Assembly (NCBI GenBank): GCA_963844715.1
Contig: CAWJPJ010000006.1
Span: 736,001-800,000 of the forward strand
Direction of reading: 5' to 3'
Length of the DNA: 64,000 nt
From: an uncultured Phycisphaerales bacterium
GTDB lineage: Bacteria > Planctomycetota > Phycisphaerae > Tepidisphaerales > Tepidisphaeraceae
Shown: in pieces, positions 24,001 to 30,000 of the stretch
Position numbering within the stretch: position 1 is the stretch's first letter
Layout of the letters: every line of letters starts with the position of its first letter
Made by a program: the position numbers

Positions 24001-27000
24001 GTCATCGTCGCCGTCGGAGATGTTGCAGTTTTCGATGAGGAAATTGGTGCCGGAGAAGTCTATTCCGTCGGTGTTGGCCTGCGTTTTGAGGGGGTCCTGA
24101 ATGGTGACGTCGTTGATGGTGACGTTGTTGTCACACTCGGCGACGAGGTGTTCGTTGGGGGCGTTTTCGATGGTGATATCGTTGACCTCGATGTTGGTGA
24201 GGCCTTCGAGCTGGACCATTTTGTTGTTGGAGGTGCTGGTGGCGTTGCTGTTGAGGATTCCGCCGCCGCTGATTTCGACGTTACCCGTCGCTCCGACGGC
24301 GGAGGAGACGAAGGTGGCGGTGGTTGAGAAATTCTGCAGGGTGGCGCCGGTTTGGATGTCGAGGTTGACGTTGTTGCCGAGGAGAATTTCATCCGCGTCG
24401 TAGGTTCCCGTGGGAATGACGACGGTGCCGCCGCCGTGGGACGCGGCATAGGAGATGTAATCGTTGATGACGGTGGTGTTGTTGGTGGCGATGGTGCTGG
24501 TGGTGCCGACGACGAGGACGTTGGAGGTTCCGATGGAGGGATCGGAAACGTTGGCGTCGTAGACGGAGGAGCCGATGGTTGGGAGCGTGGGGACGGCGTA
24601 GGTTTGCGCGAAGGCGGCGCACGCCGTTCCGGCCGCGAGGATCGCGGGGAGGAGAAATTTCAGGTTTCGACTTCGTTTGGCGATGAGTTTTCGTTCGTGT
24701 CTGGATTGGATCAACATATTTCCACTCTCCTGAAGAGAATTTCCGAACCCCTTTTAACCGGCCCGGTCAGGCCGGGACCCTACGAGTTCGCCGCGTGAGA
24801 AAACCGATGCCGGCCAATCCGAGGAGGGAGAGGGACATCGGTTCCGGGACTGCAATGACCTGCGTTTCGATTTCGACTTGCGAGATTTCGATGCCGGAGC
24901 CGCCGGTAGCGTCGTCGGTGGATCGATAGCCGACGGCGAGGCTGTCGAAAGAGCTGGTGAGGAAGTTGCTGTTGGTGCTGGTGGAGACGGTGTTGGTGGT
25001 GTCGAGGAGATCGGCGTTGTTGCCGACGTTGGCGGACGTGCCGCTATAAAGTTGGCCGGTCATGGACTCGACGTTGGTGCCGGTGAGTTCGATGGTGAAG
25101 TCTTCCGTGTAGACGCTGCCGCCGGTGAGGTACATGTCGCCGCTGGCATTTTTGCTGCCGACGGTGGTGCCGCCGGTGTAGCTGGAGCTGCTGCTGCTGG
25201 CGTCGCTGACGAGGTCCTGGTCTCGGTTGTCGCCCAGGCTTTGGGCGGGGCGGGTGTCGATGCGGGAGCCGTTGGAGTTACCGGAGGCGAAGAGTTCGGA
25301 GACGTAGCCGATGTCGCTGGCGACGCCGCCGGTGGCGTCGTTGGTGTCGGTGTTCAGAAGCGCGTCTTCAAGATTGTTATCCGGGGCGGAGGTGCCGGCG
25401 TAGCCGGGGCTGGCCTGGGAATTATAGAGGCCGAAATAAATGGCGGCGGAGGTGGACCCGCCACTGGTGACGACGCCATTGGTGCCGTTGGTATCGGTGA
25501 AGGTGAGGATGAGGCTGATTTCTCCGCCGTTGCCCAGAGAAGCGATGGAAACGGGGGAATGGGTGAAGATGGACTCGATTTCGGCGATCTGGTTGCTCGA
25601 TTTGGCGGTGGAGAGGGTGAGTTTGCCGCTGGCGCCGGTGGTGAGAGCGCTGCCGGTGGCGAGCTGGTTGGAGGCGATGTCGTAACCGGCGGAGCTGCCG
25701 GAGGCGAGGGAGCTGTCGGTTGGCGCGGGGTAAGTCGCCGGCTGAAGGACGCTGGCGGTGGGACTGCCGTCGAACATGTCGTTGAAGACGATGGTCGAGG
25801 CGGCCAACGCATGGTTGCATATCGATGCGACCAATGTAATAGTTGCAAACACAACCGATTTTGAAACGAAAGAAACGCGGCGCGCGACGTTGCGAGCAGC
25901 GCTGAGGCGATGGGTGATGGTCAGGTTGTTCAATGGGACGCGTTTGCGCGGGACGGCGCGTGGTGTCTCGCACCGGGTTGTAATTTCAGGCCTGAGGCGC
26001 AGACTCTCGGCGCGGAACATGAGCTCCTCCAATCGGTCAGTGGCGCAAGAAGAGCGCGCGATCCGTGAAGAACGATTTCACCGCGCCGTCATGGCGCGGA
26101 TCCTATGATGAAATTTGGGCCGTTGGTGCGCGAGGAGTTGCTGAAGCAGGCGGGTCACACCGCTACGGGCGACACATCTACTTTGCAGCACACACGCTCA
26201 AACTGACATGGGTAAAAGAGGGATGAACGAGGTTAGATATACGAATTACTCTCCGCGTGTCAGGCCGGATCCATTGCCGTGGCCGGCCTCCCTTTTTTCC
26301 CACCCTACGTCGCGAATCGCGCACGAGCGATCCGATGAAACAAAATTACACCGCGGATCGCAGTGCTGCAAGATAAAAAGAGACGGCAACATCGCGATAG
26401 CCACAGTTCACAAAGTGGAAATTCTACGCGAGGGAGTATTAATGCCTACGACGTAAAGATTTGGAATGTGCGGAATGTTTGATTTTGTTTGCGGATATTT
26501 TTTTTAAAAAAAATGGAAACGCGAAATGCTTTTTGCAGTTTGCATCTAAGGACGGCGCCGACCTGCGAGTTCCGAGAAGTAGAGAAACGCCGCGAAAAAC
26601 AGGCGGTTTCCCGCCAATAAGATTGTCGCAGTCGAGCCGATAGGATGGGTGCCTATATTCCACTAAGCATTAGCAGACGGCTTGGGGCCGCGTCGCGGGC
26701 GTCTTGAGCCGAGGATTGTCGCGGTGCCGAGCATGAGGCCGGCGGACATTGGCTCGGGCACCGGGGCCAGGGGCGGAGTGTAGATGGGGCTGGCGTTGCC
26801 CGCGGAGACGAAGGTGTCAAATTGTTCGTCGTCGAGGGTGATGCCGCCGTTTTTGTAAGTTCCTTCGACGTCGGGCAAGCTTGCTCCGCGGCAGGAGACA
26901 TTGCTGAAGTAAACGCCGGTTGCGTAGTACATTTTAAAGGCGCTGCCGGAGTTGATGATGTTGACGTTGAGGACATTGACGCCGTTCATATTAAGGGGGT

Positions 27001-30000
27001 TGCTGTTGAGTCCGTAGATCCCGGCGGCGTCGCTGACGGCGTTGTTGACGAGGATATTTTCCATCGTGATGTTTTCCCAGATGGGCTCGGTGGAATCGGT
27101 GGGACTGGACGGTGAGGGGACGTTGGGGAAATTGTCGCTCCCGTCGTTGTAGTAGCTGTTGACGACGAGGGCGTCGTCGACGTTGGTCATGGTCATGTTG
27201 TTGAAGGTAACGTTCTGGACGAGGCCGCCATTTTCGTTGTTGGTGACGTTGCCGTCACCGGCCTTGAGGTGGATACCGTCCTGAATGCGTCCGTTGCTGG
27301 TGGTGTTGGCGCCGGTTTCGGTGACGTTATTGACGTACATGCCATTGAGACCGGCGTTGGTCTGCCCGCCGATGGAGATTCCGTGGCCCGCGGTGATGGT
27401 GATGTTTTCTACGTTGACGTTGGCGGTATAGGCGGTCATCCCATTGATGACGGTGGTGTCGGGCTTGGCGACGATATCGTCGTCGCCGTCAGAAAGGCTG
27501 CAATTTTGGATCAGGTAGTTGGTTCCGGAGAAGTCGATGCCATCCGTGTTGGCCTGGGTTTTGAGGGGGTCCTGGATGGTGATCCCGTTGATGGTAACGT
27601 TGTTGTCGCATTCGGCGACGAGATGCTCGTTGGAGGCGTTTTCGATGGTGAGATTCTGGACTTCGACGTTGGTCAGTCCGGCAAGGAAGACCATTTTGTT
27701 GTTGGAGGTGCTGCTGGCGTTGTCGTTGAGAACCCCCCCGCCGCCGACTTCGATGTTGCCGCTGGATCCGGCGGCTTGGGTAACGAACGTGTTGAGCGGC
27801 GTGAAATTCACCAGGGTCGCGCCGGTCTGAACGTCCAGGTTGACGTTATTTTTCATCAAAATTTCGTTGGAGTCGTAGGTACCGGTTGGGACGACGACCG
27901 TCCCGCCGCCGTTGGCCGAGGCGTAGGAGATGTAGTCGTTAAGGACGGTGGTGTTGTTGGTGGCGATGCCGGTTGTAGTGCCGGCGAGAAGGACGTTGGA
28001 GGTTCCGATGGCGGGATCGGAGACGCTGGCGTTGTAGACGGCGGAGCCTATGGTCGGGAGTGTGGGGACGGCGTATTGGGCGATCGCCGAGCGCGTGGCG
28101 GCCGCGACGACGATCGCCGGGACGAGGCGCTGAATGTTGCGGCGGGCGTTTTTGGACAAACCGAAATTACGCGTGGGTTGAATGGACAAGGGTTCCCCTT
28201 TTCGTATGGAGTATTTAACCGTCGGGAACGAGAACAAGGCTACTATTTCGAATGCGATGCATCGGATTATCCGTAAATTAAGAGGTGCGTCGCGGGCGTC
28301 TTGAGCCGAGGATTGTCGCGGCGCCGAGCATGAGGCCGGCGGACATCGGCTCGGGCACCGGGGCCAAAGGCGGGGTGTAAATGGGGCCGGCTACCGCGGG
28401 ACTGGCGAAGGTGTCAAATTCTTCGTCGTTCACGGTCACGCCGCCGCTGTTTTTTACGTCCATTTCGGAATCGGGGATGAGGGCGCCGCGGACGTTAACG
28501 TTATTGAAATAGAGGCCGGTGGAGTAGTACATTTTCCATGCGCTGCCGGAATTCTGGACGTTGATGTTGAGGAAGTTGAGGCCGATGGTGTTGGCGGGGC
28601 TGGAGTTGAGGCCGTAGATTTCAGCGGCGGAGCCCACTGCGCTGACGACATTGATGTTTTCCATGGTGATGTTTTCCCACAGGGGCTCGGTGGAATCCGT
28701 GGGCGCGGAGGGGGCGGGGATGGTGGGGAAATTGTCATCGCCGTCGTTGTAGTAGCTGTTGATGACCAGGGCGTCGTCAACGTTTGTCATGGTCATGTTG
28801 TTGAAGGTGACGTTTTCGACGAGGCCGCCGTTTTCGGTGTTGGAGGTTGTGCCGTCGCCCGACTTGAGGTGAATTCCCTGCTCGATACGCGTGGTGCTGG
28901 AGGTTCCGGCGCCGGTTTCGGTGACGTTGTTCACGTACATCCCGTTGAGACCGGCGTTGGTCTGGCCGCCGATAGAGATGCCGTGGCCGGCGGTGATGGT
29001 GATGTTTTCGACGTTGACGTTTGCCGTGTAGGCGGTGATGCCGTTGACGACCGTGGTGTCGGGCTTGGCGACGAGGTTGTCATCGCCGTCGGCGATGCTG
29101 GCGTTTTCGATGAGGTAATTGGTGCCGGAGAAGTCGATGCCATCCGTGTTGGCGAGATACTTGCCGCTGTTGGCGGTGAGTGTATTGGGGTCGGCGATGG
29201 TGATGTTGTTGATCGTGACGTTGTTATCGCACTCGGTGACGAGATGCTCGTTGGAGGCGTCCTCGATGGAGAGGTTCTGGACTTCGATGTTGGTCAGGCC
29301 GGAGAGGAAGACCATTTTGTTGTTGGAGGTTTTGGTGGTGGCGTTGTCGTCGAGGACACCGCCGCCGCTGAGTTCGATGTTGCCGGTGGCGCCGCCGGCC
29401 TCGGTGACGAAGGTATTGAGCGGGGTGAAATTCACCAGGGTCGCGCCAGTCTGGACGTCGAGATTGACGTTGTTTTTCATGAGGATTTCGTTCGCGTCGA
29501 AGCTGCCGGTGGGGATGACGACGGTTCCGCCGCCGTTGGCGGAGGCGTAGGAAATATAGTCGTTGAGGACGGTGGTGTTGTTGGTGGCGATGGCGGTTGT
29601 GGTGCCGGCGAGGAGGACGTTGGAGGTTCCGATGGCGGAGTCGGAAACGCCGGCGTTGTAGACGGCGGAGCCGATGGTCGGGAGAGCGGGAACGGCATAT
29701 TGCGCAAGGACGGAGTGCGCGGCGGCGGCGATGACGATCGCCGGGACCAGCCGCTGGATGTTGCGGCGGGCGTTCTTGGACAATCCGAAATTACGAGCGG
29801 GTTGAATGGACATAAAATGCTCTCCCTTTCAAGTTGATAGACAAAACCGACCGCAACCACAGTGAATAATGTGATTGCACTAAATACGACTAATCTGGAG
29901 GCTCATGGCGCGGGGCGGCGAACGTACGCCTGCGCGGCGCGGGGAGCTATCCTTGTTTGGATCTCCGTTGCAACCAGAGGGAACGAAAATGGGCGCTCGG

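Follow-up and report, generated by a model that had tools for sequence, protein, structure and literature searches.

Pectin-type GH28 and CE8 enzymes with PEP-CTERM sorting tails in an uncultured Phycisphaerales bacterium and its relatives

An uncultured soil bacterium of the Phycisphaerales and its relatives carry GH28 enzymes that end in PEP-CTERM sorting tails. The fusion is a family-wide trait and not an isolated gene, and its conservation makes exosortase sorting of these pectin-type enzymes a well supported reading of the sequences. The fuller explanation, that they would be exported, exosortase-sorted and active pectinases retained by the cell, is the one towards which we lean with moderate confidence.

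The window, which is the whole 64,000-nucleotide stretch of DNA that was analysed, holds the following features:

28278..29813, minus strand: GH28 beta-helix enzyme of 511 aa (Pfam, structure model, motifs, PEP-CTERM tail)
28281..28358, minus strand: PEP-CTERM tail of 28278..29813 (VPEP, hydrophobic helix, Arg-rich end)
26663..28237, minus strand: GH28 paralog that shares 80% identity and its motifs with the upstream copy 28278..29813
26666..26761, minus strand: PEP-CTERM tail of 26663..28237 (26.5 bits with the genome-trained profile)
23017..24717, minus strand: third GH28 paralog, 68% identical to the other two, with VPEP at 23283
24767..26032, minus strand: Ser/Thr-rich (26%) PEP-CTERM protein between the GH28 copies (TIGR02595 20.8 bits, above cut-off)
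18327..19355, minus strand: further PEP-CTERM protein (motif profile)
about 19425-20388, strand not given: second such PEP-CTERM protein, frameshifted (motif profile)

The three GH28 paralogs are 68-80% identical to one another and score 77-93 bits with PF00295, for which the cut-off is 22.9 (Pfam E-values 1.5e-21 for 26663-28237 and 1.2e-24 for 28278-29813). In 28278..29813 the motifs start at 29150 (NTDG), 29087 (GDD), 28988 (GHG) and 28877 (GIHLK). This protein begins with a putative hydrophobic leader; helix 13-36 of its structure model is of low confidence, and a 15-residue Kyte-Doolittle peak of 1.8-2.2, a measure of hydropathy only, lies near the N-terminus of the window copies. The true start of 26663..28237 is probably near 28189, giving 508 aa. 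Alignment of four upstream regions for promoters yielded nothing usable. The third copy (23017-24717) falls outside the coordinates of the survey's finding on this DNA. The Atlas matches of the Ser/Thr-rich protein, unnamed clusters and low-count DUF hits, were not accepted as an identification.

The PEP motif, hydrophobic helix and basic cluster can be read directly in two of the window GH28s, and in the third after a one-base slip. All of these tails lie below the Pfam and TIGR02595 cut-offs, with TIGR02595 giving 15.0 bits for 28281..28358 and 14.2 for another copy (cut-off 16) and no match at E 0.1 for the remaining one. The genome-trained profile gave 29.0 bits for 28281..28358, the helix of which spans residues 489-503 in the predicted model. 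In 23017..24717 the VPEP and helix are present, and then the frame slips and reads on. Four DNA runs were compared, all low-depth contigs of a single study in which the source sample may itself figure; no RNA run was listed as containing the sequence. An additional base after 23225 is seen in one of the short-read contigs (run X4, depth 2.7). Judged by the sequence, this base probably restores a Lys/Arg run that ends at a stop codon (23198-23200), and the slip is probably an assembly error.

Genome-wide, a motif profile search identified 53 PEP-CTERM reading frames. The best score in a reversed-sequence control was 14.8 bits; 50 of the 53 exceeded it, and the other three (13.1-13.8 bits) were retained on motif. 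A chance motif is ruled out by this control together with the conservation of the tail across relatives. GH28 is the largest paralog family among these frames, with nine members, and one more is a CE8 pectin methylesterase, bearing out the survey's finding of seven or more such GH28s and one methylesterase. Five of the nine are intact single frames with a normal tail, while the rest comprise one with an N-terminal frameshift, two with frameshifted tails and one split by a mobile element. Earlier statements that some copies are frameshifted, that NTDG is not universal (one of the five intact frames has NTVG) and that two members pass the Pfam PEP-CTERM cut-off (24.9 and 22.7, both GH28 copies elsewhere in the genome) also held. 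TIGR02595 is passed by GH28 copies elsewhere in the genome (17.9 and 16.7) and by the CE8 enzyme (23.3). PF00295 has 26 matches in the genome, some of them fragments of one gene. Some large GH28s with PKD/Ig-like domains have no PEP tail, and pectate lyase PF00544 was not found in this genome, which is 85% complete. Separately, a frame at L148:9122-10210 was rejected as a shadow on the opposite strand.

The CE8 enzyme scores 64.5 bits with PF01095 (cut-off 27) and shows QDT, DFI and GRPW, which we take to be CE8 pectin methylesterase motifs; of 120 relatives, 101 have QDT, 112 D[FY][IV][FY] and 114 GR[PA]W. These motifs are shared with PemA/PemB (PF01095; NF041896, NF041901), from which the family differs in its score (70.2 against an equivalog cut-off of 700), in the Pro that most members have at the first Gln, and in the PEP-CTERM tail. 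In QAVAL, a further CE8 motif, Pro replaces the Gln in this enzyme and in 72 of the 120 relatives.

Tails are present on 108 of the 120 closest GH28 relatives (99 PEP and 9 VPLP), and PEP tails on 114 of 120 CE8 relatives. The tailed GH28 taxa are Phycisphaerae, Pirellulales and one Spartobacteria genome, and 18 named genomes carry a tailed GH28, including Pirellulales, Thermoguttaceae, Lacipirellulaceae and a Spartobacteria genome. These members in other lineages rule out the proposal that the tail-GH28 fusion is restricted to one genus. What marks the genus is the many-copy expansion: its three genomes have 22, 17 and 16 profile matches, where other genera reach four at the most, and this part of the proposed genus-specific set stands. 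The tailed GH28 family is sparse, with no match at E<=1e-80 in 300 sampled genomes of the phylum (5 candidates scored per genome); the CE8 query had no match in 150 sampled genomes. A VPLP subclade lies inside the GH28 tree with support 1.0, showing that tail type switches within the clade, and a more distant GH28 relative (P0374) carries a T9SS tail above cut-off; both are expected for an exported enzyme. Long relatives contain PATR-repeat passenger regions.

The predicted model (pLDDT 91.7) is a right-handed beta-helix with Z-scores of 36-38 to solved GH28 structures: 38.1 to 7B8B (rmsd 2.2, 331 aligned), 37.3 to 1BHE (rmsd 2.6, 328 aligned) and 36.9 to the exo-enzyme 3JUR. The top PDB match by profile was 1BHE (E 4.7e-41), and by single sequence the xylogalacturonan hydrolase 4C2L (E 5.2e-9). 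With 1BHE, the GH28 of Erwinia (Pectobacterium) carotovora, the window copies share the beta-helix, NTD/GDD/GHG and the Lys of RIK; they differ in 25% identity, a longer C-terminal helix region, the sorting tail and His for the RIK Arg. We take 1BHE to be PehA, acting in endo mode. The fold comparison separates the two modes poorly, since endo and exo enzymes differ by only about 1 Z unit. A figure legend in PMC8952511 gives 1BHE as a bacterial endoPG.

The three catalytic Asp and His223 (NTD, DD, GHG) are present in all three window copies. In a 91-sequence GH28 alignment with a mean column identity of 33%, D224, D244, D245, H277, K317, Y355 and H190 were invariant (91/91), which makes dead enzymes unlikely. 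The survey's claim that the catalytic motifs are kept is upheld for these residues; it leaves out RIK (Arg256, Lys258), the Arg of which is His in every window copy (GIHLK in 28278..29813, and likewise in 26663..28237). At this position the 91 sequences have Arg (52), His (35) or Asp (4), with seven changes on the tree, and the Lys is invariant. The arginine is listed among residues of the -1/+1 site (PMC8952511). Because this substrate-binding Arg is His in the window copies, their assignment as polygalacturonases, made from sequence, is likely but not certain.

No pectin-utilisation locus was found around the GH28s (86 neighbouring frames; 30 window frames, to about 50 kb). Their neighbours include glycosyltransferases and housekeeping genes, with GT2, GT41, GT92 or GT4 genes adjoining some copies. 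All three genus genomes have uxaE, and the sugar-kinase gene that follows it in G001 reads as kdgK-like. None of the three (85-95% complete) yielded UxaC, the UxaA/GarD domain, KduI or UxuA, which leaves gaps in the catabolic route as judged by known families; KdgD gave matches below cut-off only. The His/Asp-type copies might have a different uronate polymer as substrate, for instance exopolysaccharide made by the cell itself or a chain resembling rhamnogalacturonan or xylogalacturonan, and would then remodel the matrix and not feed the cell. The replaced Arg, the single-sequence match to 4C2L, the adjoining glycosyltransferase genes, the missing canonical galacturonate genes and the location of the exosortases in exopolysaccharide-type loci all fit such a role. 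We nevertheless consider it quite unlikely, since most family members keep the Arg, His223 is retained where endo-rhamnogalacturonase has Gly, the tail is common to a pectin methylesterase family, and uxaE is present.

Both of the exosortase genes reported earlier were found, each with Cys/Arg/His motifs. One passes TIGR02602 (114.2 against 105.55), and neither reaches the cut-off of a named exosortase subfamily. Their neighbours are EpsI-like genes and a polysaccharide-export gene or glycosyltransferase gene. Both are frameshifted near the 5' end in this assembly (G000), and both types are single frames in genomes G001, G002 and G019. The system resembles the known PEP-CTERM/exosortase system (TIGR02595, PF07589; TIGR02602, PF09721) in its three-part tail, putative leader, dozens of tailed proteins and Cys/Arg/His exosortase in exopolysaccharide-type loci. 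What sets it apart is the share of pectin-type enzymes, 10 of 53 tailed frames, and the tail as a trait of two entire enzyme families.

In the mechanism that we favour, the hydrophobic N-terminal leader would direct Sec export, the C-terminal helix, going by its motif, would anchor transiently in the inner membrane, and one of the two exosortases would cleave at or near PEP, as in the published model. The enzymes would then be retained at the outer membrane or exopolysaccharide layer, keeping oligogalacturonides near the cell. Working with the tailed CE8 methylesterase, active GH28s would break the galacturonan-type backbone of pectin, probably as endo-enzymes, and a hexuronate route of the uxaE/kdgK type would receive the monomer. 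The multiplication of paralogs and the Arg-to-His/Asp changes may make the copies differ in the pH that they prefer, or in their liking for pectin that is esterified or decorated. In support stand the GH28 fold, the invariant catalytic residues, the tails kept across both families, the T9SS tail of a relative, the Cys/Arg/His exosortases, uxaE and the size of the GH28 family among the tailed frames. Against it count the replaced RIK Arg, window tails under the curated cut-offs, the gaps in the catabolic route, the lack of a pectin-utilisation cluster, the 5' frameshifts of both exosortase genes, the Pro in QAVAL and the close Z-scores of endo and exo enzymes.

Analogy with other organisms suggests the periplasm as a real rival to a surface location. 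Intracellular fractions of Akkermansia contained more of the PEP-CTERM proteins than did those of the outer membrane, and ScyE/ScyF of Nostoc are periplasmic, both of which count against surface display. The same pectinases might stay in the periplasm, either bound to the inner membrane or set free there by exosortase, and complete the digestion of selfishly imported pectin fragments. PMC1569441 and PMC12188702 put exosortase on the periplasmic side of the inner membrane and leave the route through the outer membrane undefined; PMC11131199 proposes selfish import and an enlarged periplasm for Planctomycetota; and digestion outside the cell could fall to the large GH28s with PKD/Ig-like domains. 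We give this arrangement an outside chance: the T9SS tail of the distant relative and the PATR-repeat passengers speak against it, as do PEP-CTERM proteins required to form flocs, which are read as surface-anchored. We also think it quite unlikely that exosortase cleavage frees the pectinases into the medium, the tail being an export tag and not an anchor: the floc results point to anchoring of other PEP-CTERM proteins, and in the short copies there is no Pfam binding module to hold a free enzyme on its substrate.

PEP-CTERM enzymes are already known as rare cases: Haft et al. 2006 (PMC1569441) illustrates, as its Figure 2 legend says, enzymes to which a PEP-CTERM is joined, and calls such enzymes rare, and a 2023 preprint inferred a structural role for most PEP-CTERM cargo. 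As the survey's finding had stated, no report of a PEP-CTERM pectinase was found in the literature searched. The fate of exosortase substrates is hard to follow, in part since the majority of PEP-CTERM proteins lack an activity that can be assayed; a tailed enzyme measurable on plates or by reducing sugar would be a reporter for cleavage, anchoring and outer-membrane passage. On enzyme positioning in Planctomycetota, the relevant part of a published overview (PMC11131199) weighs only N-terminal and lipoprotein signals. The tails suggest how an uncultured soil bacterium and scattered relatives could keep plant-polymer digestion on the cell, and the Arg-to-His/Asp GH28s are candidates for new pectinase specificities. 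More tentatively, and with more doubt than conviction, exosortase may be a display platform for polysaccharide digestion in soil Planctomycetota, comparable to enzyme systems anchored by sortase or T9SS, with two exosortases sorting PEP and VPLP tails on a methylesterase and a varied GH28 set, a new Arg-to-His/Asp specificity class suited to esterified pectin or acid, and an undescribed galacturonate pathway that has UxaE and dispenses with UxaC/UxuA.

Sortase LPXTG, rhombosortase GlyGly-CTERM and T9SS offer parallels in which one catalytic family swaps sorting tails (PMC3237569); they differ in their processing enzyme. VPLP tails on GH28 were absent from the survey's finding. A tenth GH28 in the genome carries such a tail, and about ten other frames of G000 likewise close with VPLP followed by a helix and basic residues. 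This ending, in the GH28 subclade and the other frames, resembles VPLPA-CTERM/exosortase D (TIGR03370, TIGR04152), but TIGR03370 gives 18.4 against 25.35 and the exosortases fall short of XrtD (123.7, cut-off 400).

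Three GH28 genes, probably for polygalacturonases, lie in the window, together with a further PEP-CTERM gene:

23017-24717: third GH28 gene; VPEP and hydrophobic helix, after which the frame runs on
24767-26032: PEP-CTERM protein of unknown function, between the GH28 genes
26663-28237, minus strand: GH28 gene (Pfam GH28); VPEP and hydrophobic helix, Arg-rich C-terminal end
28278-29813, minus strand: GH28 gene (Pfam GH28); VPEP and hydrophobic helix, Arg-rich C-terminal end

The three GH28 proteins scored 77-93 bits against the Pfam GH28 model (cut-off 22.9), are 68-80% identical in pairs and share a hydrophobic N-terminal stretch. 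No curated PEP-CTERM cut-off was reached by any of the three tails. For the third gene, an additional base follows 23225 in one short-read contig (depth 2.7); by our reading it would give a basic tail, with a stop ten codons on. Contigs of two runs match the window at 22960-22993 only and diverge beyond, suggesting a short repeat common to other places or genomes. Elsewhere, PATR, Ig-like and PKD-like repeats mark a large, fragmented surface-protein region at 318-7989, and serpin, DNA methylase and GIY-YIG nuclease genes stand in a row at 13743-17495.

The number of sorting tails in the whole genome (G000) was measured with a PEP-CTERM profile trained on 45 of its own tails and run on 65,105 six-frame segments. 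This gave 53 frames (top reversed control 14.8 bits); 34 of 44 matches pass the Pfam PEP-CTERM model. A family scan of all 53 frames found nine GH28s, one CE8 pectin methylesterase and one trypsin-like protein, the majority having no other family, and GH28 formed the largest paralog group (nine, the next having six). Five of the nine GH28s are single intact frames; the remainder carry frameshifts, apart from one that an inserted element splits:

G000:C7:1354267-1357886 (extracted locus L029:11267-14886): recombinase element; three tandem tyrosine recombinase genes inside a PEP-CTERM GH28 gene

Its inverted ends span 24 bases, 22 of them matching, and it resembles a recombinase-in-trio element. 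The assembly has frequent frameshifts, as in the exosortases, uxaE and several GH28s, and broken copies should therefore not be taken as pseudogenes without raw reads. A tenth tailed GH28 (C8:720156, frameshifted) ends in VPLP, a helix and basic residues. A VPLP profile placed nine frames above the reversed control and the pattern added two, so that about eleven proteins of the genome carry this tail (e.g. C8:721120, C6:829696, C7:436694, C7:437668), all below the TIGR03370 cut-off.

Other tailed and untailed genes were seen in the extracted loci. A six-member PEP-CTERM paralog family has no Pfam domain (L013, L008, L022, L024), a trypsin-like protease has a PEP-CTERM-like tail (L013:14206-15228), and one frame carries two PEP-CTERM motifs, one of them internal (L024:2284-3918), reflecting either a fused pair or an overlooked stop. 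Two large GH28 relatives lack a PEP tail (L038:3911-6847 and L039:3588-7598); one has PKD and Ig-like domains, and the LE..LL motif at both N-termini resembles the planctomycete extracellular signal.

The fusion is not confined to one genus, as the survey's finding had suggested. Of 56 loci returned from a collection of species genomes, 47 were examined and their tails judged by eye; Planctomycetota and a single Spartobacteria genome supplied 33 of these, of which 27 (in 18 genomes) carried a tail, and three of the six untailed ones were cut by a contig or locus end. No tail was seen in ten loci of Fibrobacteria, other Verrucomicrobiota and Acidobacteriota, nor in four proteobacterial loci. 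What is specific to the genus is the many-copy expansion, with 22, 17 and 16 profile matches in its three genomes vs no more than 4 in any of the 38 others searched; untailed GH28s are part of these counts, which may overlap the 47-locus survey and hence were not summed. The tally of other genera, and three untailed rows, include the unpublished genome G004. The lineage assignment (Tepidisphaeraceae) follows from how the relatives are named, and the genus name is that of the survey's finding.

Among the best 120 of 165 GH28 relatives (five from G000), the pattern test gave 99 PEP-type tails, 9 VPLP-type and 12 neither, several of the latter being fragments or frameshifted; a stricter profile test gave 79 tailed. 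For the esterase, 114 of the best 120 of 150 relatives had a PEP-type tail. Of the 150 top-ranked representatives at 50% identity, 36 showed a tail pattern (two doubtful), the others ending otherwise, and among 17 proteins scanned one without the PEP tail had a T9SS tail above cut-off. Database names already read polygalacturonase or pectinesterase, mostly without a tail match. The tailed GH28 family is sparse: 300 sampled genomes of the phylum (5 candidates scored per genome) gave no match at E<=1e-80.

In a FastTree tree of 182 GH28 core domains, the tailed enzymes group together in a single clade (support 0.984), inside which a VPLP subclade is nested (1.0). One G000 copy, C7:1217058, lies outside the tailed clade (0.85); its tail may be a separate acquisition.

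The modelled GH28 at 28278-29813 (pLDDT 91.7) matched 7B8B (Z 38.1), 1BHE (37.3) and 3JUR (36.9) best, and 1BHE was also the family profile's top PDB match. All 91 aligned sequences share the three catalytic Asp together with His277, Lys317, Tyr355 and His190, a conservation that argues for active enzymes. At the Arg of the RIK substrate-binding motif, which one study counts among the residues of the -1/+1 site (PMC8952511), all window copies have His, as do 35 of the 91 members, and 4 have Asp, with seven changes on the tree; from this we infer a possibly altered pH or substrate preference. A different uronate polymer as substrate, for instance the matrix of the cell itself, seems unlikely.

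Both exosortase genes of G000 keep the Cys, Arg and His motifs. EpsI-like genes adjoin them, together with a gene for polysaccharide export or for a glycosyltransferase. Their 5' ends are frameshifted in G000 and in one frame in the comparison genomes G001, G002 and G019. With two exosortases and two tail classes, each enzyme may serve one class. In the most likely route, to which we give moderate confidence, the GH28 and CE8 proteins would be exported by Sec, transiently anchored by the C-terminus, cleaved by exosortase and kept on the cell surface or in its exopolysaccharide layer; pectin would there be cut beside the cell by the esterase and the hydrolases. Everything past the sequence features we infer. 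Two papers describe mixed locations for PEP-CTERM proteins (PMC4960237, PMC12188702). Action in the periplasm is a less likely alternative, and release into the medium is the least likely of these alternatives.

The tailed pectinase family is real and conserved, combines an established sorting system with familiar enzyme classes, and as a family is apparently undescribed. Among the papers listed by our literature searches, of which one broad search showed 15 of 3,234, no report of PEP-CTERM pectinases was seen, though tables in supplements or subscription journals could include such proteins. As far as the available portions of the sources go, enzyme homologs with an appended PEP-CTERM are rare (Haft 2006, PMC1569441), most cargo is inferred to be structural (Haft 2023, 10.1101/2023.06.07.544157), tails are exchanged within protein families (PMC3237569), CAZyme location is discussed via signal peptides and lipoproteins only (PMC11131199), one PEP-CTERM protein appears among cellulase candidates (PMC7409859), and pectin use is predicted or reported for some Tepidisphaerales with no mention of PEP-CTERM or GH28 (PMC11266412, PMC13514998).

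All three genomes of the genus have uxaE, at loci of this kind:

L148:7813-13189 (also L146, L147): uxaE, kdgK-like kinase, 2-hydroxyacid dehydrogenase, Ldh_2-family and SDR genes

In G001, uxaE is followed by a kinase, which we read as kdgK-like, and three dehydrogenases. None of the three genomes yielded UxaC, the UxaA/GarD domain, KduI or UxuA, a gap that lowers the certainty of a hexuronate route; one is likely present, but other than the textbook one, with a non-canonical pathway possible at the uxaE loci. No PF00544 lyase was found in G000, and no pectin-utilisation cluster was seen around the tailed genes. TPR/GT41-type glycosyltransferase genes adjoin tailed GH28s at L152:2-5633 (G001, by Pfam) and apparently, from sequence, at L029:2678-4732 (G000). 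At L150:4071-9637, two CE8 genes without a tail adjoin a GH44 gene.
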